DNA of 64,000 bases from an uncultured Candidatus Saccharibacteria bacterium (GCA_964491925.1 CAZBGZ010000001.1:64701-128700); one strand, 5' to 3'. Shown: positions 5,954 through 50,554, counted from the stretch's first letter. Program-made: numbers and translations. The notes: generated by a model not told the origin, from the letters alone.

Positions 5954-5961
5954 AATTAATG

Positions 5962-5984: not shown

Positions 5985-6041
5985 AATTTTGGCGTCCGGA
6001 TAGATGCGGTTCATCGACTTGTATTTTCTGCAAGAAAATAC

Positions 6042-6172: not shown

Positions 6173-6187
6173 GATACACTAATATCG

Positions 6188-7018
6188 ATGAAAAAACTTA
6201 AAGTATTGAGCATTAGCATACTCATAACTGGCCTCGTTGCTGTTATTGGGTTATTCACTTGGTTTTCATTGAGCTTTTCCGCATGCTTTGGAAAAAATTG
6301 TACAGGTACGAGCCTAGACACACTGCTTCCATACGTGATTTTGCTAATGTCGCTGATTATTGCTCCACAAGCAGGCTACATCTACTACAAATCAAGAACT
6401 GGTCGTCGTCCACAATCATTAAAATGGAACATCATAATTACAGTAAGTATACTTGTGTTTCTGCTTACTGGTGCTCTTTTTGCAGCACCACTACAATCTA
6501 GGATTCGAATTAACAATAGGGCAAGCGAACTAGAAAAGGTTAGCTTTGGTGTCTATGTAAGCCCCCTAGCTAAGAGTAACAATTATAGGTATTTAACCGA
6601 AGAAGAACATACATACCCGCATTACATTTCAATATATACGCCAGTTGAAGGCGAAATAGAAATTTCGGGCGGAGAATTTACTCTTGATTTGAGAAGCGTA
6701 ATAGGCGATCCTCCGTGCAATCTGCGAGAAGCTTCAAGTTATTTAACGGCAGGCTCAAAGAAGCGTACTGGACTTTATAGAAAAGAAGAAAAAGCTGTTA
6801 AATGTCTGAGGGTCAATGATTTTCTTATACTAACTGCTACCAGTCCGTACGACTCTAGAATTTACTACACAAGTCATGAGGTAAATGGGACAATCTTAAT
6901 TTTTAGATCCACAGCTATCTCCAACGACACCGTATTTGCAGATGCTGTAGATCGCTATGTGAATACATTAGAGCTTTTACCTAACAAAGGAATTATCAGA
7001 CAAGACCTAGGTCGATAA
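6188..7018 (+). CDS. hypothetical membrane-anchored protein (cargo between tRNA-Lys 3'-end repeats)
   Basis: ORF trimmed to MKKLKVLSISILITGL. It has three or more N-terminal TM helices, a soluble C-terminal domain and no recognised motif. Confidence 0.55.
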   Translation: MKKLKVLSISILITGLVAVIGLFTWFSLSFSACFGKNCTGTSLDTLLPYVILLMSLIIAPQAGYIYYKSRTGRRPQSLKWNIIITVSILVFLLTGALFAAPLQSRIRINNRASELEKVSFGVYVSPLAKSNNYRYLTEEEHTYPHYISIYTPVEGEIEISGGEFTLDLRSVIGDPPCNLREASSYLTAGSKKRTGLYRKEEKAVKCLRVNDFLILTATSPYDSRIYYTSHEVNGTILIFRSTAISNDTVFADAVDRYVNTLELLPNKGIIRQDLGR

Positions 7019-7050
7019 GTTATCGAGTTTAGTTGCTACAAAAAGCACTA

Positions 7051-7309
7051 TGGCCCTCCAACTAAATAATCCACCGCATTGGTGGGTTTTTTAGTTGGTG
7101 AGGTTTAGTGGGCTCGAAGCCTCGACACCTGTCGAGGGTGAAAACAGCCTGTGGCTTTTTGCAAGGAAACTTACTCCTCAAAACTTGTTTTGATGGATGT
7201 AATTTCGGGCCTGCGGAACGTAGGCAAGTCCCTCCTTTAGCCTGAGTCAGTCGAAGGCCTGGCCCTCCATTACGCTTATGTCTAAAACGGAGTCAAAAAC
7301 CTCTGTTTA
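7051..7309 (+). repeat. second set of tRNA-Lys 3'-end remnants (3' end plus terminator copy; split T-arm/acceptor copy; flank repeat)
   Basis: TGGCCCTCCA plus a CCACC-gcatt-GGTGG-T-run hairpin at 7051-7092. GTCGAGGGT at 7131, GTCCCTCCT at 7228, CCTGGCCCTCCA at 7258-7269, then TTACGCTTATGTCTAAAACGGAG...CCTCTGTTT. Confidence 0.8.
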
Positions 7310-9858: not shown

Positions 9859-11082
9859 ATGTCTTGTTTTTTAATAGTAGGCAAAAGTTTTAGTGGTTTA
9901 GAATCGAAAATTCGGGAACGCGGCGACTATTTTTTTGTTTTAAAAGACAATCCAAACAATTCTTACGTGACCAGAAAAAAGCCTGAAAATATCTACGTAG
10001 ACTTCTCTAATAAAACTGCTCTTGATAATATGGTCCGGTCTCTGCATCAGATAGACGGTGTAATTACAATTTATGAGAACTATATTGTTTCAGCTGCAAA
10101 AATAGCAAAGATGCTCAAGAAACCAGGCCTGACAATGGACTCTGCTATCGCCTGCTCGGACAAATATGAAATGCGAAGACGGATGAGTAAATCTAGTTTA
10201 AATCTGTGCCCTGATTTTGCAAGAGTAAAAAATATAAATGACATTGAAAAGTTTGCCACAAATCACCATTTTCCTCTGATTCTAAAGCCCACTAATCTTT
10301 CAAAAAGCTTATTAGTTACAAAAAATGACTCGCTTAGTCAACTACAAAATAACTACGAAAGGTCAATAAATTTAATTGGCAAAGCATATGCAAAATATGC
10401 CCCAGCATCGACACCTTCATTAATAATCGAGGAATTTCTGGAGGGCACAATACACTCTGTTGATGCCTTTATAGATAATAAGGGGGAACCAATCATACTA
10501 AAGCAAATCGTCGATTATCAAACTGGTCATGACATTGGACACGGCGACAACTTTCATTACAGTCGAAAGCTTCCGTCAACACTACCCCCAGAAAAACAAA
10601 AACAGTTAATTGAATGCGCCTATGCTGGGATTAAAGCACTGGAGATGAGAAACTCTGCTGCCCATGTAGAAATAATTATGACCGACAAGGGGCCAAAGAT
10701 TGTGGAAATCGGGGCACGAAACGGCGGCTATCGAGATAAAATGCATTTACTCGCTAACGGTATCGACGTGACCAGTGCTGCCCTGGACATTGCTGTTGGC
10801 ATAACGCCCGAGATAAATGCTACAAAAAATGAGCCTTGTGCTGTACTAGAAATTTTTCCGAAAAAAACTGGAAAATTTTATGGCATAACAAATGAAGACA
10901 AACTACGCTCACTGAAATCACTGGTTTACCTAAATATCAAGGCCAAGGAAGATCAAATCGTAGGCAAATCATCTGATGGTCACAAAATGTGTGCCGTTAT
11001 TATCTTGTATAACAGTGATAAAAAACAGTTTGCCAAAGATTTGTCTTTCGTAGACACTGAGGTCTCAGTAATTACAAAATAG
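9859..11082 (+). CDS. ATP-grasp domain protein (L-amino-acid ligase-like)
   Basis: FPLILKPTNLSKS, IIEEFLEGTIHSVDAF and HVEIIMTDKGPKIVEIGARNGG are ATP-grasp motifs. Divergent from rimK. Confidence 0.65.
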   Translation: MSCFLIVGKSFSGLESKIRERGDYFFVLKDNPNNSYVTRKKPENIYVDFSNKTALDNMVRSLHQIDGVITIYENYIVSAAKIAKMLKKPGLTMDSAIACSDKYEMRRRMSKSSLNLCPDFARVKNINDIEKFATNHHFPLILKPTNLSKSLLVTKNDSLSQLQNNYERSINLIGKAYAKYAPASTPSLIIEEFLEGTIHSVDAFIDNKGEPIILKQIVDYQTGHDIGHGDNFHYSRKLPSTLPPEKQKQLIECAYAGIKALEMRNSAAHVEIIMTDKGPKIVEIGARNGGYRDKMHLLANGIDVTSAALDIAVGITPEINATKNEPCAVLEIFPKKTGKFYGITNEDKLRSLKSLVYLNIKAKEDQIVGKSSDGHKMCAVIILYNSDKKQFAKDLSFVDTEVSVITK

Positions 11083-12644: not shown

Positions 12645-13736
12645 CTAGAGACCGGTATTTTTTAATTCTTCGAGTAATTGTTTTTGTTTATGACTTAGTC
12701 TGTGGGGTGTATCTACAATTATTGTAACGATGTGAGAGCCACGGGTTTTAGACCGTATATGTGGAACACCGTGCTCAGACAGTTTGAAGTCAGTCCCACT
12801 CTGTGTACCAGCAGGGACTTTCATGGTTATAGGCCCATCAACAGTATCCACTTCAATTTCTGTGCCAAGTGTTGCTCCTATCAAACCTACATGCTCTTCC
12901 GATAGTATTATGTCGTCTTCGCGGGTAAAGTGCTTGTGGGCTTTTACTCGGACATTCACGTACAAGTCACCTTTTTGCCCCCGCGCAATTGCTTCGCCAC
13001 GCTCTTTCAAACGGATAGTTGCACCGTCATCAATCCCAGCCGGAATTTTCAACTTTACTTGTTGCTTTTGTCTGGTAACACCCTTGCCTTTGCAGACGCT
13101 GCAAACTTTTTCTGGTATTTTCCCAGTGCCCTTACATTCGTTGCAAACATTTGCTTGCTGAATATTGCCAAATACTGTTCGCATCACACGTGTTACCTGT
13201 CCAGAGCCCTGGCAGGTGGGGCAGGTCTTGAGTTCATAACCAGGTTCGACTGTACCGCCCTCGCAATGTTCACATGACGCGTTAAGCTGCATGTTTAAGT
13301 CAATCTCTGTGCCAAAGACTGCTTGTTCAAATGATAGTTCAATTTGGGTTTGGACATCGTTACCGCGACGTTCGCGTTGCCCGCGTGCTTGCTGGTGACC
13401 ACCACCAAAAAAGTCGCCAAATATATCGCCTAGGCCTAGATCACCGAAGTCAAAGTTTATATTTTGTCCTTGCCCGCCATACCCGCCTCCAGCAAACGGA
13501 TTACCATCACTAGCTGCACTAGACCCAACTCCAGCATGACCAAACTGATCATACCTCTGTCGTTTGCTGGGATCTTTTAGTACTTCATACGCTTCGTTAA
13601 TTTCCTTGAACTTTGCCTCGTCACCACCTTTGTCTGGATGATGCTCGACAGCAGCCCTGCGAAAAGCTTTCTTTAGCTCATCTGCGCTAGCATTTTTGCC
13701 TACTCCCAATATCTCGTAATAATCCCTCTTTGCCAT
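12645..13736 (-). CDS. dnaJ: molecular chaperone DnaJ
   Basis: J domain (DYYEILGV...HPDK), G/F-rich region and four CxxCxGxG zinc-finger repeats. Confidence 0.95.
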
Positions 13737-13743: not shown

Positions 13744-14337
13744 CTAACCAAAATAATAGTCTTGGAATTTAAGTAAATACATGGCCAGCATCACAGTATA
13801 GACAACCACAATGATATTTATGTGGTTTTTCTGAACAAATGAACCGGCTTTCTGCAACGATTTATTTTTTGTAGCTACACTCCAATTTGCAAATGAATAA
13901 ACAAAAATAGGGATACTCACTACCCACCCAACAACACAAAATATACAAATTTTATTGATGATGTATAAGCTGACACTGAAGAACCAAACACTAAACCCTA
14001 ACAATATTGTGCTTAGAATCATGACAATATTCCTGTAAGCCTTATCAGGCTTTGTGCCGACCAACATAAACAAACCACTCAGAGACAACATGGCAAACAC
14101 TATCATCCCAATAAATGCGTTCGGGAATCCAAATAATGCAGATAGTTTATTGCCTAGCACCGTACCGCAATCAATAATGGGGTTTAGGTTGCAATTGAGG
14201 ATCACCCCAGGGTTTTTTAGCATTGCAATCCGTTCGCTAGCCTGCCAAGTCATGGCAACCATGCCTGCAAAACCACCAAGTGATAGAACCCAAGCCCATA
14301 TTCTTGGTGTTGTTGAAGAATTTTTCATATTACCCAA
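13744..14337 (-). CDS. vitamin K epoxide reductase (VKOR) family membrane protein
   Basis: 4-5 TM helices, loop cysteines CNLNPIIDC and a CIFC (CxxC) motif in a TM helix. Confidence 0.7.
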   Translation of the reverse strand: MGNMKNSSTTPRIWAWVLSLGGFAGMVAMTWQASERIAMLKNPGVILNCNLNPIIDCGTVLGNKLSALFGFPNAFIGMIVFAMLSLSGLFMLVGTKPDKAYRNIVMILSTILLGFSVWFFSVSLYIINKICIFCVVGWVVSIPIFVYSFANWSVATKNKSLQKAGSFVQKNHINIIVVVYTVMLAMYLLKFQDYYFG

Positions 14338-14528: not shown

Positions 14529-16436
14529 CTAGTCCTCTTTTTTGTCGTCTACTACTTCGCCTTCTACTGGTTCGTCTTTGTCTTTTGGCTTCTCGTCTGA
14601 ATCATTATCTTCAGCTTTTTCGTCTTTTGCTGTTTGCTCATACATCTTTGCGCCGATTGGCATGATTTTGTCAGTTAGCTCCTTGGCGGCTTTTTCAATT
14701 TCTTCTTTATCGGCTTTTTCGTCAGCTAGTACTTTTTTGGCAACTTCTACTGCTTCATCCAACGTCTTTACGTCTTCTTCGGATAGTTTTTCCTTGTTGT
14801 CGTTCTTCATTTTCTCAGCCTGATAGACCGCGCTATCTAATTGGTTACGTACTTCGATTGCCTCTAGCTTTTTCTTGTCTTCCTCGGCGTGTGCCTCGGC
14901 ATCCTTGGCGGCTTTTTCAATTTCTTCCTTGTTAAGGTTGCCACTGTTCTGAATAGTAATACTCTGTTCTTTACCAGAACCTTTGTCCTTGGCGCTAACA
15001 TTCAAAATACCGTTAGCGTCGATATTAAATGTCACTTCAATTTGCGGTACACCGCGAGGCGCAGAAGGGATGCCGTCTAGCACAAATCGTCCCAATGACT
15101 TATTGTCAGCGACCATTTCCCGCTCACCCTGCACCACATGTATTTCTACTTGTGGCTGGTTGTCTGCAGCAGTACTAAATGTTTCGCTCTTAGATGTTGG
15201 TACGGTTGTGTTGCGCTCGATTAGTTTTGTAGCAACTCCTCCAAGTGTTTCGATCCCAAGACTTAACGGGGTTACGTCTAGCAATAAAACATCCTTGACG
15301 TCACCCTGCAATACTCCACCCTGAATGGCGGCACCAACGGCCACAACTTCATCAGGGTTAACACCTTTCAAGGGCTCTTTGCCAAAAATTTCTTTTACTT
15401 TTTCTATAACAGCCGGCATTCGGGTCATACCGCCCACTAGGATTACCTGGTTAATATCCTTGGCATCTAGCTTTGCGTCCTTTAGCGCTTTTTTGCATGG
15501 TTCGGCAGTTTTATTAATGTAGTCCTGGACTAGATCAACAAGTTTTGCGCGTGTTAGTTTATACTCGAAGTGCTTTGGTCCCTCTGCGTCAGCAGTTAGG
15601 AAAGGCAAGTTAATGTCAGCGACTTCTGTGGTAGACAGCTCTTTCTTGGCTTTTTCGGCTTCTTCTTTTAGGCGCTGCATAGCGGCTTTGTCTTTTTTGA
15701 CATCAATCCCGGACTCTTTTTTAAACTCGTCGACAAAGTGGTTGACGATCTTCAGGTCAAAGTCCTCTCCACCCAAGTGAGTATCACCATTTGTTGACAA
15801 CACCTCGAATACGCCATCACCTAATTGCAAGATAGAAACGTCAAATGTTCCCCCACCCAGATCAAATACTGCGACTTTTTCTTCTTTTTTCTGGTCTAAT
15901 CCATAAGCTAGCGCAGCTGCGGTCGGCTCGTTAATTATTCGTTTTACTTCTAGTCCAGCAATTTTACCAGCATCTTTCGTTGCTTGGCGCTGAGAATCAT
16001 CAAAGTAGGCGGGTACCGTTATGACTGCTTCTGTCACTGGCTCACCCAGGAATTTTTCGGCATCAGCTTTTAGTTTGCCTAGAATCATAGCACTAACTTC
16101 TTCTGCGCTGTATTCCTTGTCGCCCATTTTAACCTTAACGCCAGTACCACTCTTCACAATTTCGTATGGCATTAGTTCGATGTCTTTTTGCACTTCTTTG
16201 TCAGAAAATTTACGACCTATGAGGCGCTTGATTCCAAAAATTGTGTTTGTTGGGTTGGTTACGCGTTGACGGTTTGCAACCTGGCCAACTAGTCTTTCGC
16301 CATTTTTATTAATTGCTACGACTGATGGCGTAGTACGATTGCCTTCTGTGTTGGCAATAATTTCTGGCTTTCCAGACTGCATAACAGCCATTGCGCTGTT
16401 AGTTGTTCCTAAATCGATTCCTATTATTTTTCCCAT
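14529..16436 (-). CDS. dnaK: molecular chaperone DnaK (Hsp70)
   Basis: [17 protein letters not shown] and [11 protein letters not shown] signatures, 635 aa, acidic C-terminal tail. Confidence 0.97.
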
Positions 16437-17425: not shown

Positions 17426-18125
17426 ACAGTGCCTCCTCTAACGCTTCGCCCGTTCTTTGAACTAACCCGATGACGCCTCTGTAACTTTGCCTGGTTGGGC
17501 CAAGAACTCCGATATAGCTATGGTCAGAATATGGGCTGCGAAAACGACTAATAATTAGGCTACACCCAGCTGAAGACCCGATTGGGTTTTCCCGGCCAAT
17601 ATATACGTTCATGGGCTCGTTTGGTGCGGCTTCGCGCAACCATGGTTGTAGATTATCTAGTAATTGCGCCACTTCACGAACCTGTCCTGGCTGCATAAAC
17701 TCTGGCTGCCCAAACAAGTTGCCAAGCCCACTCATGTACAGCTGATCTCCGATTGTTGCCAGCCCCAAATTGCTCGTCAAATCCACAAGTGTTTCAACAG
17801 CGTTACGAATCGTCTGTTCGTTAGCGCCGGCATTATTAACCCTAGCGGACAGCGCTCTTTGCTCTCGTTTGGACGGCTGAACTTCTTTTTGGCCCTGAAT
17901 CTCGTTAACATAGTGACGATATCCTTTGTCAGTAGGAATGCGTCCTGCAGAAGTATGCGGTTGTTTTATATAGCCTTTTCGTTCTAGTTCTGCCATTTCA
18001 GCACGAACAGTAGCCGAAGAAACGCCAAAGGCTTTTGTTAGCAGGCTAGAGCCAACTGGGCTAGCAACCTCTGCATATTGTTCGATAATTGCGGCTAGTA
18101 ATTTTTCTTGTCTATCTGTTAGCAT
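17418..18125 (-). CDS. hrcA: heat-inducible transcriptional repressor HrcA (short form)
   Basis: MLTDRQEKLLAAIIEQY...VGS..L....GVSSATVRAEMAELERKGYI..PHTSAGRIPTDKGYRHYV. Start trimmed to 18125 so that the CIRCE operator lies upstream. Confidence 0.85.
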   Translation of the reverse strand: MLTDRQEKLLAAIIEQYAEVASPVGSSLLTKAFGVSSATVRAEMAELERKGYIKQPHTSAGRIPTDKGYRHYVNEIQGQKEVQPSKREQRALSARVNNAGANEQTIRNAVETLVDLTSNLGLATIGDQLYMSGLGNLFGQPEFMQPGQVREVAQLLDNLQPWLREAAPNEPMNVYIGRENPIGSSAGCSLIISRFRSPYSDHSYIGVLGPTRQSYRGVIGLVQRTGEALEEALYE

Positions 18126-18136
18126 AATTTTATAAA

Positions 18137-18161
18137 TAGCACTCATTAAGTAATAGTGCTA
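18137..18161. promoter_or_regulatory. CIRCE-like HrcA operator 1
   Basis: TAGCACTC-N9-TAGTGCTA inverted repeat, compared with the consensus TTAGCACTC-N9-GAGTGCTAA. Confidence 0.75.
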
Positions 18162-19502: not shown

Positions 19503-21290
19503 CTAATCTCTCTTTAACATTACGGTAAAAGCTTCTGGTGGAATCTCTACATTGCCAAATTTTTTCATACGAGCTTTACCACGCTTTTGTTTGGCCAATT
19601 GCTTCTTTTTCCTGGATACGTCACCACCGTATAACCCAATTGTAACATCTTTGCGAAAAGCGCTAATATCTTCACGCGCTATAAAATTAGCCCCAATGCC
19701 TGCTTGAAGCGCGACCTTGAACTGTTGCCTAGGGATAACATCCTTTAATTTCTTGACAACGTCACGACCCAACGCGACCGCTTCCGACCTATGCGTGACA
19801 ACCGCAAGCGCCTCTACTCGCTCGCCGGCGACGTAAAAATCTACTCTTACTAGATCTTCTGTTCGGTAGTTGTCGAGCTCGTAATTGAAAGACCCATACC
19901 CACTAGTGACAGATTTTAGGTGATCGTAGAAGTCAGTTAGCAAATTAGCCAAGGGGGCCTCGAAAGTCACGACCGTCAAGTCATCTACATATGACAGATT
20001 TTTTTGCTGTCCACGCTTGCTAGAGATAAGCTGAATGACTGCTCCAACAAAATCTTTAGGCACAACTATCTCGCCTTTTATCCATGGCTCACGAATCTCG
20101 GCGATGGTTGATGCATCAGGAACATCGGCAGCCGACCTAATGTCTAACTGCTGGCCATTTGTTAATACAACTTGATAGTCAGTTGAAGGATTCGTAACGA
20201 TTAACTCTAGGTTGTACTCTCGTTGCAAGCGCTCCTTTACGATGTCCATGTGCAGTAAACCCAAGAAACCAATGCGCAGGCCGAAACCTAAAACTGGTGA
20301 GTTTTCTGGGTCATAACGTAGTGCAGAATCAGACAAAGATAATTTTTCTACCGCTTCTTTTAACAGACTGAAGTCTTCGTTGCTATTTGGGAAAAATCCT
20401 GCATATACAAAAGGCTGGACGTCTTTGTACCCCGGCAATGAATGTTTGGCTTTACTTCTAGATAATGTAATTGTATCTCCAACCTTAGCTTCGCGGGTGC
20501 TCTTTAGGTTGGTTACGATGTAGCCAATTTCACCCGTACTCAACGCATCCATCTTTGTCATTTCAGGGGTTAGCCGCCCAACTTCTAGCGCAATTCCATC
20601 TGCCCCGGAGGCCATCATATGAATAACCTCATTTTTCTTTATAGCCCCGTCTATAACCCTCGCATAGAGAATTACCCCACGGTAATCGTCGTAGTAGCTA
20701 TCAAAAATCAAAGCTCTTGTTGCCGTATCGTCTTTTCCCTTGGGCGCGGGTACATCAGCTACTACTCGCTCTAATACACCATCAACCCCGACGCCAGTCT
20801 TTGCAGAGATATGCAAGATATCTTCTTTTTTACAGCCTAGTAGCGCAACTATTTCGGCGCCAACCCTATCAACATCAGCAGCAGGTAAATCAATTTTATT
20901 CAGCACGGGTATGATAGTTAAGTCTGCGGCAATAGCTAGATAGACATTTGCCAATGTCTGGGCTTGGATTCCCTGACTTGCATCAACAATCAGAATTGCA
21001 CCCTCACAGGCTTCCAGGCTTCTAGAAACTTCATAGCTAAAATCAACATGTCCTGGGGTATCGATAAGATTCAACTCGTAATCTTTGTACTTCATTCTTA
21101 CAGGTTGGAGTTTTATCGTAATTCCCTTTTCTCGCTCCAAATCCATGCGATCCAGTAGTTGCGCTTTCATATTTCGCATCTCGACGGTTCCAGTAATTTC
21201 TAGTAGTCGGTCAGCCAAAGTAGACTTGCCGTGATCGATATGGGCAATAATACAAAAGTTTCTTATATGGTCTTGTCTCATTGAAAACAC
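19503..21290 (-). CDS. lepA: translation elongation factor 4 (LepA)
   Basis: IRNFCIIAHIDHGKSTLADR, DTPGHVDF and NKIDLP GTPase motifs, plus the LepA C-terminal domain. 595 aa. Confidence 0.95.
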   Translation of the reverse strand: MFSMRQDHIRNFCIIAHIDHGKSTLADRLLEITGTVEMRNMKAQLLDRMDLEREKGITIKLQPVRMKYKDYELNLIDTPGHVDFSYEVSRSLEACEGAILIVDASQGIQAQTLANVYLAIAADLTIIPVLNKIDLPAADVDRVGAEIVALLGCKKEDILHISAKTGVGVDGVLERVVADVPAPKGKDDTATRALIFDSYYDDYRGVILYARVIDGAIKKNEVIHMMASGADGIALEVGRLTPEMTKMDALSTGEIGYIVTNLKSTREAKVGDTITLSRSKAKHSLPGYKDVQPFVYAGFFPNSNEDFSLLKEAVEKLSLSDSALRYDPENSPVLGFGLRIGFLGLLHMDIVKERLQREYNLELIVTNPSTDYQVVLTNGQQLDIRSAADVPDASTIAEIREPWIKGEIVVPKDFVGAVIQLISSKRGQQKNLSYVDDLTVVTFEAPLANLLTDFYDHLKSVTSGYGSFNYELDNYRTEDLVRVDFYVAGERVEALAVVTHRSEAVALGRDVVKKLKDVIPRQQFKVALQAGIGANFIAREDISAFRKDVTIGLYGGDVSRKKKQLAKQKRGKARMKKFGNVEIPPEAFTVMLKRD

Positions 21291-21313: not shown

Positions 21314-22930
21314 TTACCAGTCGATGTTGATCGGCTTCAAAATAACTTTCTTGATTCTTTCAGTTACAGGTTTAACTTCTTCGATGTTGAATAAGGCCGA
21401 CATGGTTATATATATACTAAAAGTAACTGCACTAATCGCAGTGAGTTTTGTCCCCAGAGTAATTACCCCCGTATCATTTGCTTCTAGTGGGAAAAGTGAA
21501 ATCATTACAAATGTCCCGACTATTGCAAATCCCGTAACGGATAGTATCCGCACAAGATCACCGGCATATTTTAGACTGAATAATTTTCTATCTCGCTTAA
21601 TTATTATGGCCAGCAAAATAATAACTTCAATCATCGCAGACAGAGTCTGCGCCAACGCCAGACCAGCCACATTGTACACACCAGGACGAGCTAGGGTAAA
21701 AGCAAGATAAATGTTCAACCCAATTGTAATCAGAGAAATGATTAATGGCGTAACAGTATCCTTATGTGCATAAAAGTAGCGTGATAATATCTGGTAAATA
21801 GTTCTGAAAAACATAGCACCACACAAAAATCCTAGGATTAGGGCGATTTGCTGAGAATCCCTGGTAAAAATAATTCTAGCTAAGTAACCTCGTGCAAAGT
21901 AAGTCACTATCAATATCGGCATTGATATCCAAATCATAGCCTTTAGGACTTTCAAAAACTCCCTTCGGAAAAGATCGGGTCGTCCCTGGGACAGACGCTC
22001 GGTCATCCTAGGAAATGCTGCTGTTGAAATTGCCGTACCAATCAGAAGTATTGGGGTTGTATGAATAACGTAGGCATTTTCGTAATAGGTTATATTTCCC
22101 TCGCCTAATTGCCTTGCAAACCTAGTCTCAACAATACTGTTAATCGCATCTATCCCTTGATCGATAGATCTAGCTGGTAGTTGGCGCAGCACCCCACGAA
22201 GCGCCTTGTTTTCCCATCGGATCATTGTTTCGTAACGGAACTTTGTTCCCCACATACCAAGAAAGGCAATAAGTAGTTGAATGAATGCACCAACTGCTGC
22301 ACCTACTCCAAGCCCTACAATACCTAAATGACCTGGGCCACCGTCATGAGGAGCTACTGTGCTAAAGACTATCGCGCTGATAATTATACAAAGGTTATAA
22401 AATAATGGTGCGATTGCATAGAAAAAAAATCGTCCTATTGTCTGTTGGATACTCATAAGAACGCCAGAGATGGTGAAGAAAAGAGGATTCAGTGAAATAA
22501 GGCGCATTATCATAACAGCGTTATTGAGCTGTTCTCCATTGATTCCGGGCGCAACATGCTGTATCAAAGGCTTTGCAAAAATAATGATAGCCAAAGCAAT
22601 AAAGCCCATAACCATCATCATTATGTTTAGCAAGCTAGAAGATAATCGCCAAGCTCCTTTGCGATCATTATTTTCTAGTTTATCTGACAAATATGGTATA
22701 AAAGCAACCCCAAGTGCACCGGCAGCAATAGTAAGAAAAAAGAAATCGGGAATTTTAAACGCTGCAAAAAATGCATCCGTACTTTGTGGCCCGACCGCCG
22801 GGAAATTAGCATTAATGAGTTTTATTCTCAAAAATCCCAATATCTGACCAATCAAAGAAATACCAATCAAAAGAGAGGCGGCGCCACTCACAGACATACG
22901 TTTTGTAGCTCTGCGTAATAATCGATTCAT
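21314..22930 (-). CDS. murJ: lipid II flippase MurJ (MviN family)
   Basis: 538-aa, roughly 14-TM MOP-superfamily protein with a typical MurJ N-terminus (SGAASLLIGISLIGQILGFLR). Confidence 0.8.
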   Translation of the reverse strand: MNRLLRRATKRMSVSGAASLLIGISLIGQILGFLRIKLINANFPAVGPQSTDAFFAAFKIPDFFFLTIAAGALGVAFIPYLSDKLENNDRKGAWRLSSSLLNIMMMVMGFIALAIIIFAKPLIQHVAPGINGEQLNNAVMIMRLISLNPLFFTISGVLMSIQQTIGRFFFYAIAPLFYNLCIIISAIVFSTVAPHDGGPGHLGIVGLGVGAAVGAFIQLLIAFLGMWGTKFRYETMIRWENKALRGVLRQLPARSIDQGIDAINSIVETRFARQLGEGNITYYENAYVIHTTPILLIGTAISTAAFPRMTERLSQGRPDLFRREFLKVLKAMIWISMPILIVTYFARGYLARIIFTRDSQQIALILGFLCGAMFFRTIYQILSRYFYAHKDTVTPLIISLITIGLNIYLAFTLARPGVYNVAGLALAQTLSAMIEVIILLAIIIKRDRKLFSLKYAGDLVRILSVTGFAIVGTFVMISLFPLEANDTGVITLGTKLTAISAVTFSIYITMSALFNIEEVKPVTERIKKVILKPINIDW

Positions 22931-22985: not shown

Positions 22986-24854
22986 CTAGTAAAGTGCAGC
23001 TGTCTTGGGCATAACCGAGCCCTTGAGTATTTCTAGGACTTCTTCGGCTTCTACGGTTTCTTTTTCGATCAACGAATTCTTTAGTTGTTCGAGCTTGCTC
23101 TTGTTTGCTTTTATAACTTCCCGGGCACGTCTTGCAGCCTCACTTATTAGTGACTCTATTTCGTCGTCAATGACTTTGGCAGTCTCTTCAGAGTATTGCC
23201 TCTCGTGCATTAGTTTGTCCATCATAATGCCCTCGTCTGTATGGAAAACCTGATCACGGAGTTTTTTGCCCATTCCCTGATTTGTTACCATATCCCTAGC
23301 TAGTTCTGCGGCTTTTTGAAGATCGCTTCCAGCACCGGTAGTTACTCTCTCGGGGCCATATATAACTTCCTCTGCGACGCGACCGCCTAGCATTCTGGCT
23401 AATACGTCTTTGAACTCGATGATGCTATGATAGCTTTTATCTTCTGGCGGGATGAACCATGTCACCCCTCCTGTGCCACCACGCGGGATAATTGTAACCT
23501 TGTGAACCATGTCACTATCAGGCAAAACATGGCCGACTATTGCATGCCCAGCTTCGTGATATGCGGTTAAGTTCTTTTCTTCCAGGCTCATGACTTTGCT
23601 TTTGCGCTCCGGGCCAATGGCCACTTTTTCGAATGCCGCCGTTACGTCACTTTGGCTAATTTCTTTATGTCCATGTCGTGCTGCAATAATTGCGGCTTCA
23701 TTGATAATATTCGCTAGATCTGCACCTGATGTTCCTGCTGTTTTAGCTGCTAGTGCGTCCAGGTCAACTGACTTAGCCATTGGTTTTTTAGCGCTATGGA
23801 CTTCCAGGATCGCTTGGCGGTCCTTGCGATCTGGCAAATCAATAACAACACGTCGGTCAAAACGCCCAGGTCGAAGTAACGCTTTATCCAATACGTCTGC
23901 GCGGTTAGTAGCAGCCAAAACAATAACATTCTGCCCTTGCTCAAAACCGTCCATTTCCACAAGTATCTGGTTTAGTGTTTGTTCACGTTCATCGTGACCA
24001 CCACCCATTCCTGATCCACGCTTACGTCCTACTGCATCTATCTCATCAATAAAAATTATGCAAGGTGCATTCTTTTTAGCCTTTGCGAAAAGATCTCGGA
24101 CTCTGCTGGCCCCCACCCCAACGAACATTTCAACGAATTCTGAACCAGAAATACTAAAGAAGGGAACAGCTGCCTCGCCTGCAACAGCACGAGCCAGCAT
24201 AGTCTTACCTGTCCCCGGTGGCCCTACCAGAAGAACACCCTTCGGTATTTTAGCTCCGACATTCTCGAACTTTTTTGGAAACTTCAAAAACTCAACAACT
24301 TCTTCCAAGTCTTGCTTGGCTTCGTTGGTACCCGCAATATCCTTAAAGGCAACCTTGGTTTTTTCATTTCCGTAAAGCCTGGCTTTACTCTTGCCAAAGC
24401 TCATAGCTTGATTGCCTTGCCCCTGAGCGCTCCTCAGCATAAAAAATAAAAATCCACTAATAAAAATCACGGGCAATATAGATATGCCTACATTCAGCCA
24501 CATATTTGTGCTATCGCTGGCCGGTTTGTTGATTATTTCTACATCACGGTTAGTTAATCCTTGCTCGTAGATACTGGACCCTGCTTCTTTTCGAGATTTT
24601 TCAGTCGCCTTGTCCTCTCCTTTTTTAACCACCGTTAGGTCTTCGCCAGTTACAGTAATTGTTTTAATCTCTCCCTTGTTGGCTCTGTTAACAACGTCAT
24701 TAAAGGGAACGCTTTTTAAGTTATCCGTTGGCTTATAGGCAGCGAATATAACTAGGCCGATTAAAATTATTAGTGCAACGAACCCAAAATTTTTAAAACC
24801 GCGCTTGCGGTCGTAATTGCCACTACCTGGCTTCTTGAACGGTTTTTTATCCAT
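22986..24854 (-). CDS. ftsH: ATP-dependent zinc metalloprotease FtsH
   Basis: Two TM helices, Walker A GPPGTGKT, Walker [12 protein letters not shown] region and the HEAGHA zinc motif. Confidence 0.97.
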
Positions 24855-27106: not shown

Positions 27107-27208
27107 ACTAGGACTTAATTATAACAAGCCTTAAAACCATAAGCAAGTATTAATATAAACAACCTATTCAACAGAGGCAAAACATGATATATTTCACCAG
27201 TCACACAT

Positions 27209-27285
27209 GTCGGTGTAGCTCAGTTGGTTAGAGCGCAGGACTCATAAGCCTGAGGTCGTTGGTTCAATTCCAACCACCGACACCA
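27209..27285 (+). tRNA. tRNA with CAU anticodon (elongator Met or Ile2-lysidine), CCA encoded
   Basis: Acceptor GTCGGTG/CACCGAC, D arm GCTC-AGTTGGTTA-GAGC, anticodon loop CTCATAA, T arm GTTGG-TTCAATT-CCAAC, ACCA end. Confidence 0.88.
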
Positions 27286-27458
27286 TTAGATAAGCACTTC
27301 ACCTGAAGTGGTTTTTTTATGTAGACAGATATTTGGAATTGAACCTCGGTGGCAAATAGCCAGTTGGCTGTTTGCGTTTTACCTACTTGCTTGCATGCGC
27401 AATGACTTTAGTCATTTTGTCGCTAGCAGAGGATAAAGGATTCCAACCGCCGACACCA
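27286..27458 (+). repeat. ~155 nt structured non-coding element bounded by an 18 nt copy of the tRNA 3' end
   Basis: Terminator hairpin at 27295-27318. Inverted copy of the tRNA T-arm (TTGGAATTGAACC, 27333-27345). Hairpins AGCCA-gt-TGGCT and AATGAC-ttta-GTCATT. TTCCAACCgCCGACACCA at 27441-27458 matches the tRNA 3' end at 17 of 18 positions. A homologous element lies inverted at 52534-52691. Confidence 0.8.
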
Positions 27459-27533: not shown

Positions 27534-28160
27534 ATGAAAAAAATAAACCAAAAAGGCTTCGGACTAGTTGAAGGCTCACTCATTTTTGTAATTATAGCTC
27601 TCATTGGTGGTTTAGGTTTCTATGTTTATAACGCTCGAGGAACTGCCGGGAACAACGATATTTCTACAACTACACCTTACAACAAAAAAACTACCAAAAA
27701 AGATATTCCAGCCCCAAAACAAGAAGTGGATGCCACTATCACTGACGTTAATATTCAAATTACCTCTAAATCGGATATTAATAAGTTGCCCACAACTACG
27801 CCGGCGAGCTTCAAGGCTTACATAACCAACGAATTAAATACCGACAAACCTGACACCGACGGCTGCTTGGTTGCGTATTCAATTACCAAAATCAGTCAAG
27901 TAAATATTAAGGGTGGTGAGTTCAGAGTAAGTAGTAGTGGCAACGCTAGTGACCAAAATTGTATGACTGGCGGGGCACCCAACCTATGGGTACTTACACC
28001 GAGTGGGAACTGGGATCGCGTAACATTAAATGGCCCCATGTGTAAAAGCAAAAACGGAGGTTTAGTTTACAAAGAATTTGCTCCGGAATGTCATACAAAC
28101 ACTAATTCGTCATCTTTGGTTAAAAACCCTAACGGTTCAATAACCTCTTTGGCGAAATAG
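27534..28160 (+). CDS. type IV pilin-like protein (prepilin-type N-terminus)
   Basis: MKKINQKG|FGLVEGSLIFVIIALIGGL is a class III signal with Glu at +5 and a hydrophobic helix. Confidence 0.65.
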   Translation: MKKINQKGFGLVEGSLIFVIIALIGGLGFYVYNARGTAGNNDISTTTPYNKKTTKKDIPAPKQEVDATITDVNIQITSKSDINKLPTTTPASFKAYITNELNTDKPDTDGCLVAYSITKISQVNIKGGEFRVSSSGNASDQNCMTGGAPNLWVLTPSGNWDRVTLNGPMCKSKNGGLVYKEFAPECHTNTNSSSLVKNPNGSITSLAK

Positions 28161-29311: not shown

Positions 29312-29386
29312 CGCGGGATGGAGCAGCGGCAGCTCGCGTGGCTCATAACCACGAGGTCCCAGGTTCGAGTCCTGGTCCCGCAACCA
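29312..29386 (+). tRNA. initiator tRNA-fMet (CAU), CCA encoded
   Basis: CGCGGGA...TCCCGCA acceptor with the C1xA72 mismatch typical of bacterial initiators, anticodon loop CTCATAA, T arm CCAGG-TTCGAGT-CCTGG. Confidence 0.88.
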
Positions 29387-29453
29387 TAAAAAACGTCTCA
29401 ACATTCGTTGGGGCTTTTTTTATTGCTGTGGCCAAGACTTGGTTCTGGGACGC
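29381..29453 (+). repeat. direct repeat, left copy (tRNA-fMet 3' end plus downstream flank)
   Basis: CAACCATAAAAAACG...TTGGGGCTTTTTTTATTG...GGTTCTGGGACGC recurs at 30591-30663. Confidence 0.8.
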
Positions 29454-29545
29454 ATACTGCTTCAGCAGTATGCAAGTCCCTGGTACGGTCATCAAGCTCG
29501 AGCACAGGAGTTTACTCCGAGCACGAGTGCCGGATGTGCCATTGC

Positions 29546-29561
29546 CCTGGTCCCACAACCA
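29546..29561 (+). repeat. additional copy of the tRNA-fMet 3' end
   Basis: CCTGGTCCCaCAACCA against the tRNA's CCTGGTCCCGCAACCA. Preceded by split T-arm pieces (GGTTCT at 29441, GTCCCTGGT at 29476). Confidence 0.75.
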
Positions 29562-30531: not shown

Positions 30532-30590
30532 AAATCTCAGCCCACTAGCTAACTATGCTAGTATCTCATTCCAATTCGAATGCACTAGGG

Positions 30591-30663
30591 CAACCATGAA
30601 AAATACCTCAGCATTGGCTGGGGTCTTTTTCATTGTCGGGGCTAGACTCTGGTTCTGGGACGC
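30591..30663 (+). repeat. direct repeat, right copy (tRNA-fMet 3' end plus flank)
   Basis: CAACCATGAAAAATACC...CTGGGGTCTTTTTCATTG...GGTTCTGGGACGC matches most positions of 29381-29453 by eye. Confidence 0.8.
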
Positions 30664-45203: not shown

Positions 45204-45217
45204 TCAAAAAAATAATC

Positions 45218-45380
45218 TGGTGGCGATAAAGCGAAGAGTTTTGAACCTTTGGATGTTATCGTTGAATGACTGATTTCTAATCCCAATCCTGATTGGAACT
45301 TACAACTGTAAAGGCTGAGAAAGTAGCTACTGAACAGATGTGGCGATACTAGAAAAGAGTAAGATAAAGTGTGTTGAAAC
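45218..45380 (+). repeat. array repeat copy C1 (degenerate: in-frame TGA and a frameshift)
   Basis: Starts TGGTGGCGATAAAGCGAAGAGTTTTGAACCTTTGG, ends GTGGCGATACTAG, plus the tail AAAAGAGTAAGATAAAGTGTGTTGAAAC. Confidence 0.95.
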
Positions 45381-45400
45381 TACTACTGTATGATGTGTGT

Positions 45401-46303
45401 ATGACAATTGAAGACCAACTTACTGAGAAATATGGCTTGCGTTATCCAAAATGCAAGAACCTGCATACTCTAGCTAATGATTCATTTGAAGTATTATGTC
45501 CTGACGGACACTTTGCTCTCAAAGTCTACAATGCAACCGCAAGAAAGCCTCAAGAAATACAGTGGGAAATAGATCTAACCCTTCACCTAACAGAGAATGG
45601 CGCGCCAGTCGCTCCAATTGTTGCTGCTAAGGACGGTAGTCACCTGAAGACGTTCAGTGTTGATGGGCAGGATCGTGTAGTAATTTTGTTCGAGTGGGCT
45701 GCAGGCGAGAAACCTAAACCAGAGCTCAGTACTTATACTCTAATTGGTGAGGCAGCTGCTCGTATACATGATGCGGCTGACTCCTTCGCGTCAGATTTGC
45801 CCCGTGAAGAATTTGACGCTTACGAACTGTTTGACGACCAACTGAAACGAATGAAAATACCACTTGAAGAAAGTGGTCAGTGGCAACGCGTCTTTGACCT
45901 AACCGAACGAATGAGGAAGATTGTTGCTAATCCTAGTCTCGACTATGGGATTATTCATAACGACCTAACGCTAGATAACATACACCTCGATAGCGGTAAG
46001 CTGGTTGTTTTTGATTTCGATAGTGCAGCAAAGTCTTGGCGAGCAGCCGAGCCGTGGGGAGTACTCAAGGCTTCTGAAGATAGGTTCAAGGCTTGGCTTG
46101 AAGGATACCGCTCAGTTCGTGAGTTTAGTAAAGAAGACGAACAAGCCGTCGCTGCTTTTGTGATCATCGAAGATATTAGGAACGTCACATGGAAACTGGG
46201 CTGTGCTCGCTCTTCACGTGGCAAGCCCCTCATAAAAACAAAGGATATACCTGCTGTTGTTGACGAGTGGCTAGAGTGGGAAGCACAAAAGGTCAGGAAC
46301 TAG
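45401..46303 (+). CDS. aminoglycoside/choline kinase-like phosphotransferase (APH family fold)
   Basis: IIHNDLTLDNIHL (HxDxxxxN catalytic loop) and VVFDFDSA (DFD metal site). Start trimmed to MTIEDQL. Confidence 0.7.
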   Translation: MTIEDQLTEKYGLRYPKCKNLHTLANDSFEVLCPDGHFALKVYNATARKPQEIQWEIDLTLHLTENGAPVAPIVAAKDGSHLKTFSVDGQDRVVILFEWAAGEKPKPELSTYTLIGEAAARIHDAADSFASDLPREEFDAYELFDDQLKRMKIPLEESGQWQRVFDLTERMRKIVANPSLDYGIIHNDLTLDNIHLDSGKLVVFDFDSAAKSWRAAEPWGVLKASEDRFKAWLEGYRSVREFSKEDEQAVAAFVIIEDIRNVTWKLGCARSSRGKPLIKTKDIPAVVDEWLEWEAQKVRN

Positions 46304-46781
46304 TTTTTCCAAATAGCTGCACCATAATTTCTTCTCGATCATCTTCAATCGCCAAGTAGATTCCTTCGTTTTGTAGACGCGTTTGCATAGACTCCTCAAT
46401 CTCTAGTGAGTCATTAAATACATCTAAAATCGTATGTTCAGGGTCATCTCGAAGAACTCTGTTTATCGACAGTTTGTTACAGCTGCAACAAAGATGAATG
46501 AACATGATTTCACCTTGTTTAGAAATGCCTTCGTGCTTGAAAGTAAGTCCAATTGGCTTCATGCCACCTAAACAAGTAGCTGTGCGATCACCTGGCTTCC
46601 CATCAATATGTTTAGACCAAAAACACATATTGCAGTGGTTCCGGTTCTTTGAACCCATAAGTTCGTTTATGACTACCCATTGCTTACAATGAGTGCACTT
46701 GAATCCACCTGCTTTGTTTTCTCTAAGTCGTTCTTGTTTTCTAAACTTTTCATAGTCAAATAGCTCACGTTTATAGTTCAC
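46293..46781 (-). CDS. zinc-ribbon protein with RNHCP-like motif
   Basis: CTHC...NRNHCNMC...CLGG...CCSC cysteine pattern. The RNHC motif recalls the RNHCP domain family. GTG start. Confidence 0.5.
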   Translation of the reverse strand: MNYKRELFDYEKFRKQERLRENKAGGFKCTHCKQWVVINELMGSKNRNHCNMCFWSKHIDGKPGDRTATCLGGMKPIGLTFKHEGISKQGEIMFIHLCCSCNKLSINRVLRDDPEHTILDVFNDSLEIEESMQTRLQNEGIYLAIEDDREEIMVQLFGKTSS

Positions 46782-46801
46782 GCAGAAAAATCCTATCCCA
46801 C

Positions 46802-46828
46802 AAAAAAAACCAGCTAGCTTAGCTGGTT
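46802..46828 (-). terminator. terminator-like hairpin inside the 5' leader of the RNHCP-like gene (possible attenuator)
   Basis: On the minus strand, AACCAGCTA-agc-TAGCTGGTT followed by T8, ending about 20 nt before the GTG start. Confidence 0.55.
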
Positions 46829-46986
46829 ACTGGATAGTCGGAAACTATTTTACTTTGTGATTACATTTACAGATTTTTGGCACCAGCCAAGCAGAACCCC
46901 ATCTGGGGCGTGACTTCTGCATATGTGGTGCTACTTCTGAAATGTAACATAAGCAATATAATACTAACTTTAGTACGGATTGTCAA

Positions 46987-47122
46987 TGGTGGCGGTAAAG
47001 CGAAGACTTTTGAACCTTTGGCTGAAGTTGTAGAGTGGCTGTTTGAGAACAAGGAAATGAGTTGCGCTAGTTGGTTAGCAGAGGCTTCATTGATCGATTC
47101 GATACAAGGGTGGCAATACTAG
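46987..47122 (+). repeat. array repeat copy C2 (frame intact, divergent 3' half)
   Basis: TGGTGGCGGTAAAGCGAAGACTTTTGAACCTTTGG... The frame reads GGGKAKTFEPLAEVVEWLFENK...GWQY*. Confidence 0.95.
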
Positions 47123-47641
47123 AGGTCCGTTCCCAAAGTTTAAGGGTGCAAGCATATAGGGCGACGGAACTTCTTTTTTTCGCTCAACTAGATCCACTTC
47201 TTCTACGTGCGCAATCGAATCCGTACCTACAGATCCCAAAACAAGCGCTTCATAAGGAAGAAGCGGCACAGTTACCACTTGATCGGCGCGTACTTTCAGC
47301 GTAGCTAATCTACCCCCTTCTCTCTGAGCATATCTTAAGGCTATGTCTCGTTCAGGTGTAGCAGAGACAAAGGGAGTGTACTCGCCCGATATAGTTGGAT
47401 CACTCGAGGCAGCATGGGTTGCTATAAGATTGATTAACATGTAATCCCTATCGCTGGCGACCTCTTTTATGACTTCATATAAGTTTTTTGGACGGTCGTG
47501 TAGAAGAGCTGCTGAAAGCATACCTCTCTCTGGGTCAACTTGATGTGGGGCAAAACCTCGATATAGCGTAACGACTTCGTCAGGAGACTGACCAAGTCTT
47601 ATTTCTGGAGATAAATTATGCCAATCAAAGTGATAAGACAT
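47087..47641 (-). CDS. hypothetical protein with ADP-ribosyltransferase-like R-S-E motif spacing
   Basis: 184 aa with TLYRG ... PFVSAT ... PYEALVLG in the order and approximate spacing of R-S-E ART toxins. Weak, motif-only. Its 3' end overlaps the tail of C2. Confidence 0.5.
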   Translation of the reverse strand: MSYHFDWHNLSPEIRLGQSPDEVVTLYRGFAPHQVDPERGMLSAALLHDRPKNLYEVIKEVASDRDYMLINLIATHAASSDPTISGEYTPFVSATPERDIALRYAQREGGRLATLKVRADQVVTVPLLPYEALVLGSVGTDSIAHVEEVDLVERKKEVPSPYMLAPLNFGNGPLVLPPLYRIDQ

Positions 47642-47678
47642 ATTTATATATTACCATAAGCTTAATAATAAGTCAATG

Positions 47679-47841
47679 TGGTGGCGATAAAGCGAAGACT
47701 TTTGAACCTTTAGAGTCTGTTGTGGAGTGGCTGATTGCGAACCCTAATCCTGCCTGGTCTTTCCAACTCAAAGAAACTGCGAAAGTTAAAATCGAACAGA
47801 GTTGGCGGTACTAGAAAAGAGTAAGATAAAGTGTGTTGAAC
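47679..47841 (+). repeat. array repeat copy C3 (frame intact)
   Basis: The frame reads GGDKAKTFEPLESVVEWLIANPNPAWSFQLKETAKVKIEQSWRY*, with the tail AAAAGAGTAAGATAAAGTGTGTTGAAC abutting the next gene's stop. Confidence 0.95.
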
Positions 47842-48387
47842 CTAGAGGACTGCGATAGCGGCTAAAAGGATACTTACATGTGACAAGAATATAAACGGTA
47901 ATTCGAAGTATAAGAAATGATCCCAATACTTGGCAGCAAACAAGCAGAGTATGCTCATAAGCCCAAAAATAAACCACTCGAGCAAGGCATATGTACCCGT
48001 CAGGGTTGTTGCAAATACGAAAGCTAGTGCCAACATCCCCATTCCCATTCCGTATGCTAGATAGTCATGTACTTTTCCAAGCCTACCTTTTCTGGCTGGG
48101 ATCATAGCAAGCAAGAGTTCGCAGCCGATGACTACCGTGTAAAACATTATCAGTAATGGTCCTGTACCGAGCCGAGGAATCACCAAAAAATACATCATCA
48201 CCGAAATCAGACTCCCGCATGTCCAAAGGATGATTCTAAACTCCCTTAGAGTCTTGCTATCTTTAGCCGCTAACTCACTGAGTGTACGGCGTTTTTCGAG
48301 CCTGTGTTCTCTGACTGCAAAAACTGTAACGCTAACTGAAGATAGGATGATTCCGAGCAAACCACAAATAAAAGCAAAGGCTGGCAT
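47842..48387 (-). CDS. hypothetical integral membrane protein
   Basis: 181 aa with 5-6 TM helices. Confidence 0.55.
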   Translation of the reverse strand: MPAFAFICGLLGIILSSVSVTVFAVREHRLEKRRTLSELAAKDSKTLREFRIILWTCGSLISVMMYFLVIPRLGTGPLLIMFYTVVIGCELLLAMIPARKGRLGKVHDYLAYGMGMGMLALAFVFATTLTGTYALLEWFIFGLMSILCLFAAKYWDHFLYFELPFIFLSHVSILLAAIAVL

Positions 48388-48422
48388 AATGATGATTATA
48401 GACTAAAAAGTTCTAACGTATT

Positions 48423-50541: not shown

Positions 50542-50554
50542 ATTTTCTCCTAAC

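Follow-up and report, generated by a model that had tools for sequence, protein, structure and literature searches.

A structured element bounded by tRNA 3'-end repeats, and its place among tRNA-anchored cassettes in a Saccharibacteria genome

The stretch of DNA considered here, 64 kb from an uncultured Candidatus Saccharibacteria bacterium and referred to below as the window, is numbered along its own length and contains four tRNA genes (called with ARAGORN and Rfam), one for lysine and three with the anticodon CAU. Directly after the CCA of the tRNA(CAU) gene at 27209 begins a compact element, E1, which opens with an intrinsic terminator-like hairpin, continues with an inverted copy of the T-arm of the same tRNA and two or three further hairpins, and ends in a copy of the last 18 nucleotides (nt) of the tRNA (Table 1). 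The inverted T-arm matches its source at 13 of 13 positions (0.07 such matches were expected from shuffles) and the right repeat matches the tRNA 3' end at 17 of 18 (chance expectation 0.00). Just past the right repeat lies a gene for a type-IV-pilin-like protein (N-terminus KGFGLVEGSLIFVIIALIG), which found no match in the Pfam scan. All of the features that the original prediction, made from the sequence alone, had listed for this copy are thus present, beyond chance, and they proved to belong to a wider family of units that are interleaved with accessory genes.

The element at tRNA 27209 and its family in the window

A paralogue of E1, designated E2, lies 1.1 kb downstream of the tRNA(CAU) gene at 53773, inside a cassette array and not adjoining the tRNA. 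It is inverted relative to E1 yet collinear with it (mean column identity 83%), and the two share an exact 31-mer (27395-27425 and 52547-52577), none being expected by chance. The inverted T-arm of E2 (ggttcaaatccac) and its terminal repeat match tRNA 53773; the claim of an inverted, collinear second copy with ends fitted to the other tRNA was borne out in every part.

In both the minimum free energy and the centroid structures predicted for E1 and E2, a multi-branched shape is closed by a helix between the inverted T-arm and the beginning of the right repeat. The predicted folds of E1 and E2 closed by this helix have z of about -3.1 to -3.3, a value from two copies in which the helix follows from the repeats themselves, and a single-stranded tail of 12-15 nt in the predicted folds matches the tRNA gene.

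Elements of 155-300 nt stand behind all four tRNAs of the window. Each has a terminator, hairpins and an inverted copy of the T-arm, and repeats the final 16-22 nt of its own tRNA. At least six copies occur in the window, with more in three of the related loci that were compared (designated by L-numbers), namely L010, L017 and L024. A family of tRNA-bounded elements at tRNA(CAU) is therefore real, as had been proposed, but it is not restricted to that anticodon, as tRNA-Lys carries two of them. Two subfamilies are distinguished by their cores. Subfamily A (E1, E2, E3b and E5) has an AGCC...GGCT hairpin, hairpin 1, common to all four copies and followed by a long hairpin; subfamily B comprises E3a and E4. 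The A and B copies behind tRNA-Lys share one frame, with the left repeat plus terminator on one side and the right repeat plus a 'tacgcttatg' hairpin on the other.

The interiors of these elements keep their pairing while their sequences change. For subfamily B, three copies (E3a, the window E4 and the E4 of L010) were aligned and folded with RNAalifold, which predicted 41 pairs with 91.9% of cells paired (three copies). Both sides have changed at 18 of these 41 pairs, a number reached in 0 of 500 shuffles and set against 2-5 in slid controls. Because G-U cells outnumber A-C cells by 12 to 1 in this subfamily, the fold is assigned to the tRNA-sense strand. For subfamily A the comparison was between two copies, E3b (tRNA-Lys) and E5 (tRNA-CAU), which align without gaps over 77 nt at an identity of only 58% and fold identically, with bulges in the same places, a common CUUG tetraloop and compensatory changes at 11 of 23 pairs. 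Because pairing has been kept through 11-18 compensatory changes, the interiors are selected for shape and are not decaying scars; they are under selection for secondary structure. Subfamily B closes differently from the inverted-T-arm helix of E1 and E2. With a covariance model built on subfamily B, a further copy was detected in a distant relative, at L017 18011-18137 (48 bits).

Two side observations concern the window copies. E5 contains, at 53584-53654 on the minus strand, a second, degenerate and GC-rich (59%) subfamily A core, made up of an ATGCC..GGCAT hairpin, TTGCAAGG and a long GC-rich hairpin; lying upstream of the well-conserved core, it is an internal tandem duplication. In addition, a fragment resembling the 5' end of tRNA-Lys lies at 5750-5790, approximately 100 nt upstream of the intact gene (GGGCCAGTGGCTCAG, compared with GGGCCAGTAGCTCAG in the gene).

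Table 1. Positions of tRNA genes, elements, cassettes and modules, counted along the window unless a related locus is named.
Feature	Position	Strand	Remark
tRNA-Lys	5877-5953	+	carries two elements
tRNA-3'-end repeats at tRNA-Lys locus	ends at 5953, 6129, 7061, 7269	+
E3a	5954-6129	+	subfamily B, behind tRNA-Lys
ORF cassette	6130-7061	+	276-aa open reading frame (ORF), between E3a and E3b
E3b	7062-7269	+	subfamily A; core 7159-7235
tRNA(CAU)	27209-27285	+	ARAGORN; Rfam tRNA 72.5 bits
Left direct repeat	27268-27285	+	final 18 nt of tRNA(CAU)
E1, whole element	27286-27458	+	begins directly after tRNA CCA
E1 terminator-like hairpin	27295-27310	+	start of E1; with T-run, 27295-27318
E1 inverted T-arm copy	27333-27345	+	exact reverse complement of 27261-27273
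E1 hairpin 1	27352-27375	+	GCAAATAGCC-AGTT-GGCTGTTTGC, 10 bp, AGCC/GGCT, terminator-like
31-nt block	27395-27425	+	perfect identity to E2; includes hairpin 2
E1 hairpin 2	27401-27416	+	AATGAC-TTTA-GTCATT
E1 right direct repeat	27441-27458	+	copy of last 18 nt of tRNA, one mismatch, ends at CCA
Type-IV-pilin-like gene	27534-28160	+	cargo just past E1 right repeat
Initiator-type tRNA (fMet)	29312-29386	+
E4	29387-29561	+	subfamily B, behind initiator-type tRNA
Pseudo-tRNA 3' end closing EamA transporter cassette	30567-30598	+	cassette follows E4
Second E4	30599-30663	+	truncated
ORF-cassette array behind tRNA 53773	45207-52857	-	each cassette ends in an R module
R-module starts	45218, 46987, 47679, 48423, 50747, 51154, 51924, 52692		plus-strand numbering
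R-module frames	45218-45350, 46987-47122, 47679-47812, 48423-48556, 50747-50880, 51154-51290, 51924-52083, 52705-52827	+
R-module frame in L019	10001-10153
E2	52512-52701	-	paralogue of E1, within array behind tRNA 53773
E2 right repeat	52512-52533	-	22 nt, perfect match to tRNA 53773-53848
E2 hairpin 2	52556-52571	-
E2 hairpin 1	52599-52620	-
E2 inverted T-arm	52630-52642	-	matches tRNA 53773-53848 (-)
E2 terminator	52666-52682	-
E2 left partial repeat	52692-52701	-
Repeat closing E5	53471-53492	-	perfect, 21-22 nt
E5	53493-53772	-	behind tRNA 53773; core 53482-53558, structural twin of E3b core
tRNA(CAU)	53773-53848	-

Cassette arrays and pseudo-tRNA ends

All cassettes, those with an ORF and the non-coding ones alike, begin directly behind the ...CCA of a real or pseudo tRNA, and the units measure 0.16-2.4 kb and mostly hold one gene. 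The adaptation of element ends to each tRNA, which had been remarked from the two tRNA(CAU) copies, is indeed seen, but it forms part of this wider grammar. The neighbours of tRNA 53773 are genes for an FMN reductase and an HxlR protein, and in the array behind this tRNA nine of ten genes lie on its strand. The cargo of the array is accessory in character and partly of resistance type, and includes an APH phosphotransferase, an ABC-F ATPase, an AAA_33/zeta-like kinase, an RNHCP protein and an NT5C nucleotidase. The genes adjoining E copies encode pilin-like, EamA, NT5C and unknown small proteins, and the accessory genes directly past the terminal repeat vary by genome: E4 is followed by EamA in the window, by an unannotated 409-aa ORF in L010 and by Peptidase_S58 plus a 152-aa gene in L024, and E5 is followed by the NT5C nucleotidase.

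ORF cassettes close with a conserved pseudo-tRNA 3' end of approximately 30 nt, 5 nt longer than the real stretch from T-loop to CCA, and such sites close ORF cassettes in four genomes. Behind tRNA 53773 this end belongs to a module of approximately 170 nt, the R module, present in eight copies, each of which closes one ORF cassette; its last ~33 nt in the tRNA sense (AAAGGTTCAAAAGTCTTCGCTTTATCGCCACCA) are nearly invariant. Over the first ~33 nt of the modules, counted from their plus-strand starts, pairwise difference is 0.05-0.07; in the stretch next to it, variation has a codon-like period, with values of 0.37/0.27/0.52 for the three codon positions. No conserved secondary structure was found in the R modules (consensus energy -2 kcal/mol, covariation term near 0). 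The AAAGGTTCAAAAGTCTTCGCTTTATCGCCACCA site occurs eight times in the window (45218-52692), three times in L019 and twice in L024. For tRNA-fMet arrays the corresponding site is GGTTCCAATTCGAaTGtAC....GCAACCA, of which the window has one (30567-30598), L017 three and L024 two, so that this pseudo-end is conserved across three genomes. In L023, a NUDIX gene lies between the tRNA 3' end with its terminator and a second version of this pair that is 77-88% identical. Judged from sequence variation, near-invariant pseudo-ends of 30-33 nt beside freely varying codons favour a site that is recognised by a protein.

The R modules also hold a frame of approximately 44 codons (GGDKAKTFEPL..VVEWLI.NPNP.W.LQLKE...EQSWRY) on the strand opposite the cargo, with codon-like variation; the start codon is missing in most copies and two contain in-frame stops. 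A single homologue of this peptide (P0221, 50 aa) was found among 5.8 billion proteins, and neither Pfam nor PHROGs gave a match for the peptide or for the unknown cargo proteins. In L017, three repeats of 97-126 nt between 18161 and 20567, each ending in an fMet-type pseudo-tRNA 3' end, form a further array; an E4 copy follows one repeat, and no intact tRNA-fMet lies within the 20 kb examined.

Related loci and the reading of the element

A metagenome search with the 3' 28-mer of tRNA 27209 returned one locus, L010, in which the site is empty: the tRNA (identical over the 28-mer) is followed by about 10 nt, shared flank and then pyrB, and both E1 and the pilin-like gene 27534-28160 are missing. 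The pyrB gene of L010 is 90% identical to that of the window at the DNA level. In L007 (PyrB 93%) the same tRNA has a different trailer of approximately 150 nt that lacks a terminal repeat, and in L023 none of three tRNA(CAU) genes has an E element, plain terminators being found instead. Copies also occur apart from intact tRNAs, namely E2 and the L017 copy at 18011-18137, which follows a mere remnant, ...GGTTCCAATTCGAATGTACCCCCGCAACCA plus terminator. E4 stands directly behind tRNA-fMet in three genomes, and in L024 the order is tRNA-fMet, E4a, two ORF cassettes, E4b, a perfect 16-nt repeat and a partial E4c. The architecture recurs in genomes with about 60% PyrB identity. The original prediction had looked for an empty site in a close relative, which L010 supplies, and had named as its refutation an element fixed at all homologous loci, with neither empty sites nor other copies, a pattern that the empty L010 site and the other copies contradict.

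These observations, together with the covariation, are consistent with the reading that E1 is an RtT-like structured RNA carried as a non-coding cassette that is gained and lost by recombination at tRNA-3'-end-like sites, a reading to which we assign roughly even chances. E1 would then be one cassette kind within a tRNA-anchored cassette system of Saccharimonadia, in which cassettes may be added, lost and shuffled by recombination at tRNA-3'-like sites, and E1 with its pilin-like gene would have been added in this lineage at the tRNA beside pyrB. The leading terminator would end the tRNA transcript. Most likely, the interior functions as a structured RNA with the same reading direction as the tRNA, and RNA is presumably made from the element core. 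The inverted T-arm and the start of the terminal repeat would close the fold, leaving the acceptor 3' strand plus CCA as a single-stranded tail, as in the RtT consensus, and the terminal tRNA-3'-end copy would be the junction to which the next cassette is attached. A trans-encoded recombinase, rather than homologous recombination after natural transformation, may join the cassettes. The proposal of miniature integrated elements or attP-like scars thus holds for small elements bounded by copies of the T-loop-to-3'-end stretch, and is not supported on the scar side, since the interiors are structurally selected; nor was a recombinase found among the window ORFs scanned or in the related loci. 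The alternative of a conserved small RNA, which had also been offered, gains real support from the tRNA-sense covariation and from the architectural match to RtT RNA.

Several results weigh against this reading. No recombinase or integrase was found in the Pfam scan, which covered the longest non-nested window ORFs from 110 aa upwards, apart from five long ones (13744-14337, 14529-16436, 19503-21290, 21314-22930 and 22986-24854), whose L007 orthologues are annotated DnaK, LepA, MurJ and FtsH; nor was a recombinase found in the gene tables of the related Saccharibacteria loci (about 150 kb). ComEC and pilus genes are present, and because ComEC makes DNA uptake plausible, homologous recombination could join the cassettes. 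The repeats begin at varying points between the T-loop and the beginning of the acceptor strand, a looser 5' limit than one fixed crossover point predicts, and the missing nearby recombinase and this variable limit call for caution. An apparently good terminator sits between the tRNA and the E1 core, and no sigma-70-like promoter was found on the plus strand of E1; transcription of the core is hard to account for with this arrangement. The covariation is based on two or three sequences per subfamily. At E4, where the window and L010 copies are somewhat more diverged than the neighbouring genes (67% vs 72-90%), vertical descent of the copy may be possible on sequence grounds. Finally, RF00391, the Rfam family of RtT RNA, gave no match to the Saccharibacteria copies at its gathering threshold (45 bits) or at E<=10; because it scores on no copy, the link to RtT is one of architecture and not of demonstrable homology.

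A possible, if somewhat unlikely, account retains an RtT-type RNA and dispenses with site-specific recombination: the RNA would be processed from the tRNA transcript with the tRNA-like 3' end as a processing signal, unequal crossing-over between the tRNA-3'-end repeats would alter the number and position of copies, and genes would arrive by transformation and homologous recombination anchored on the tRNA or on conserved modules. The architecture is that of the tandem tyrV repeats, which yield RNA, and the G-U strand bias, the CUUG and UUUA tetraloops, the tandem copies in L024, the internal duplication in E5, the ComEC and pilus genes and the lack of a nearby recombinase all accord with it. 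It leaves unexplained why pseudo-ends of approximately 30 nt are nearly invariant beside free third-codon positions and why the pseudo-end is conserved across three genomes in tRNA-fMet arrays, and it too must contend with the terminator that separates the tRNA from the core.

That the units are decayed attL/attR scars of integrase-bearing islands or prophages that once occupied these tRNAs is improbable. Direct repeats of a tRNA 3' end are a hallmark of tRNA-site integration, partial-tRNA repeats do accumulate in islands (10.1101/2020.12.28.424599), and the empty L010 site would be expected. The interiors, however, have kept their pairing through 11-18 compensatory changes and so are selected, the architecture recurs behind four tRNAs and in genomes as distant as those with about 60% PyrB identity, and integrase fragments were not found in the ORFs and loci scanned.

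We regard as quite unlikely the idea that the folded core is a recombination substrate (attC-like single-stranded DNA) or a guide- or bridge-type RNA whose tail directs a trans-acting enzyme to tRNA 3' ends. Structure is conserved and sequence is not, tRNA-specific segments in both orientations stand beside a conserved scaffold, the predicted tail matches the tRNA gene, and the array grammar resembles that of integrons. Against this, the R modules that end ORF cassettes do not fold, for which reason attC-like folding was dropped as a general requirement of junctions; no IntI, IS110, TnpB or IscB gene is adjacent, and GTTRRRY/RYYYAAC boxes are missing. A common tRNA trailer passed on by vertical descent and without mobility, for example an insulator or double terminator, which the two terminator-like hairpins of E1 and the E4 copies directly behind tRNA-fMet in three genomes would suit, is very improbable and largely refuted because of the empty site and the displaced copies (E2 and L017), besides which L007 has another trailer at the same tRNA, L023 has none, two unrelated cores (A and B) occupy one frame behind tRNA-Lys, and T-runs are missing after the long hairpins.

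Further observations were made at the related loci. The tRNA at 27209 points away from pyrB in the window and towards it in L010 and L007, the tRNA and its promoter being flipped relative to conserved flanks (window 27107-27285 vs L010 1140-1290 and L007 1-240). Judged against FMN-reductase and DivIC, genes of the tRNA 53773 type take three orientations, one each in the window, L017 and L019 (53773-53848 vs 12825-12900 and 10762-10837, respectively); the cassette array of L019 is antisense to its tRNA and located upstream. One simple inversion does not derive the orientation states at both tRNA(CAU) loci, and a single inversion between the T-arm and its inverted copy was rejected as the cause of the flipped tRNA, as it would break the tRNA. 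The E4 terminal repeat at L010 2700-2745 is apparently split by a 25-nt insertion (cctggtcccgca / gaaagtgggcgagtcctccccgcgt / aacca). Hairpins after tRNA(CAU) at L007 57-110 and L017 12760-12820 have a common inner sequence (AATTTTG...GTGGCCAAAAT) and outer stems that differ and are complementary; they are followed by a T-run in L017 and by TTATTAATT in L007. In metagenome assemblies, contigs from this strain or near relatives of it terminate within these tRNA genes, L007 in tRNA 27209 and L020 in the D-arm of tRNA-Lys, which fits assembly breaks induced by repeats or strain variation.

A PyrB search of genome contigs gave only distant non-Saccharibacteria loci, and walks along the PyrB homologues P0009 and P0005 and the FMN-reductase homologue P0123 met no tRNA. 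No subfamily A copy was found in any other related locus searched, viral contigs held no match to the B-core motif, to the R site, to the hairpin of E1/E2 or to the fMet pseudo-end, and blastn of E1 against phage and plasmid collections gave none.

Comparison with known systems

Some candidate systems were set aside. A miniature inverted-repeat transposable element was rejected, as E1 does not terminate in inverted repeats (its ends are TTAGATAAGC... and ...GATAAAGGA) and the flanking repeat is 18 nt of tRNA and not a short duplication, and an IS110 bridge RNA or an IS605 omega RNA or reRNA was rejected because no recombinase or nuclease gene lies beside the E copies. A fold-back or quasi-palindrome origin of the inverted T-arm does not fit the order of the pieces. 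The acceptor-like 5' segments of E3b and E5, considered as a mini-tRNA or minihelix at the 3' end, are part of a small conserved hairpin. At permissive thresholds, Rfam gave only noise on all copies.

Among features that define tRNA-integrated islands, flanking repeats that partly copy the tRNA 3' end were found, as was a relative with an empty site, and a recombinase of the element's own was not found among the ORFs and loci scanned. Such tRNA-anchored islands arise by serial integration; those of the CIME type lack an integrase and are flanked by att sites. In the tycheposons of Prochlorococcus, as here, successive insertions behind a tRNA are set apart by partial copies of its 3' end, older units are displaced outward as new ones arrive, and accessory cargo varies between strains (10.1101/2020.12.28.424599). 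The Saccharibacteria units differ in being tiny (0.16-2.4 kb), with no integrase or replication module found, and in having conserved junction modules, while their E modules are also structurally selected.

The likeness to integrons lies in co-oriented, mostly single-gene cassettes set in a row beside one fixed site, in a short conserved site, related to the primary site, that closes each cassette, and in resistance-like cargo (APH, ABC-F, transporters). In contrast to integrons, the primary site here is a tRNA 3' end and IntI was not found beside tRNA 53773, and the end modules of ORF cassettes have neither hairpin structure nor R'/R'' boxes. It is unlikely, albeit conceivable, that Saccharimonadia possess an integron-like system of gene capture with tRNA 3' ends as the primary site, a trans-acting recombinase and RtT-like units as non-coding cassettes, perhaps serving as RNA scaffolds or guides whose single-stranded, tRNA-identical tail would assist in targeting the site; if true, this would give RtT-type repeats their first mechanistic role.

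RtT-type repeats have been known since the 1970s, without a clear function. In E. coli MG1655 (NC_000913), tyrV is followed by three units of 178 nt, all of which close with the 19 nt that end tRNA-Tyr (AATCCTTCCCCCACCACCA), and a further unit is placed between tyrT and tyrV. The annotation of this region is rttR and tpr, and RF00391 scores the units at 133-137 bits. In the RF00391 consensus, a helix joins an inverted copy (GGGGAAGGAU) to the first part of the repeat (AUCCUUCCCC) and the tail (CCACCACCA) is unpaired, and a direct copy of the T-arm half (AAGGUUCGA) lies inside, with hairpins after it. RNA from the tandem tyrV repeats is described in two papers (PMC4986893; PMC3318445), each citing Bosl and Kersten 1991. 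RtT RNAs are described as being released from the transcripts of tyrT and other tRNA operons and as tied to the stringent response, by a mode of action that is unknown (PMC4986893; PMC3318445; 10.1101/2024.07.17.603846).

The Saccharibacteria elements resemble these units in being approximately 130-180 nt long and directly 3' of a tRNA gene in the same orientation, and in ending with a copy of the final ~19 nt of that tRNA, CCA included, which begins in the 3' part of the T-loop. An upstream inverted copy of this stretch, a direct copy of the 5' half of the T-arm, hairpins in between and the possibility of tandem copies are also shared. A closing helix that would leave ...CCA single-stranded, as drawn in the RF00391 consensus, is predicted for E1 and E2. 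They differ in that the Saccharibacteria units show no detectable similarity to RtT in sequence or by covariance model, begin with an intrinsic terminator, have at least two unrelated core subfamilies, are fitted within a single genome to four or more different tRNAs, vary in presence among close relatives and are interleaved with accessory-gene cassettes. By this analogy the element appears to be built, and to work, like RtT without being a member of RF00391.

Such units mark the exact junctions of accessory-gene swaps between close Saccharibacteria relatives, involving pilin-like, transporter, phosphotransferase and ABC-F resistance-type genes. They bear on how genes are renewed in epibiotic bacteria with tiny genomes and no visible mobile-element machinery. 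The junction sites offer a simple handle for finding such islands in metagenomes and are possibly neutral landing sites for genetic tools. Beyond what is known of RtT repeats and tRNA-anchored islands, the present case adds structural selection, the matching of ends to each tRNA, insertion polymorphism among close relatives and an integron-like grammar in a phylum of very small genomes. The recurrence of the RtT architecture in a distant, genome-reduced phylum, where it is re-created for each tRNA and structurally selected, suggests a functional design of general kind and not an enterobacterial oddity.

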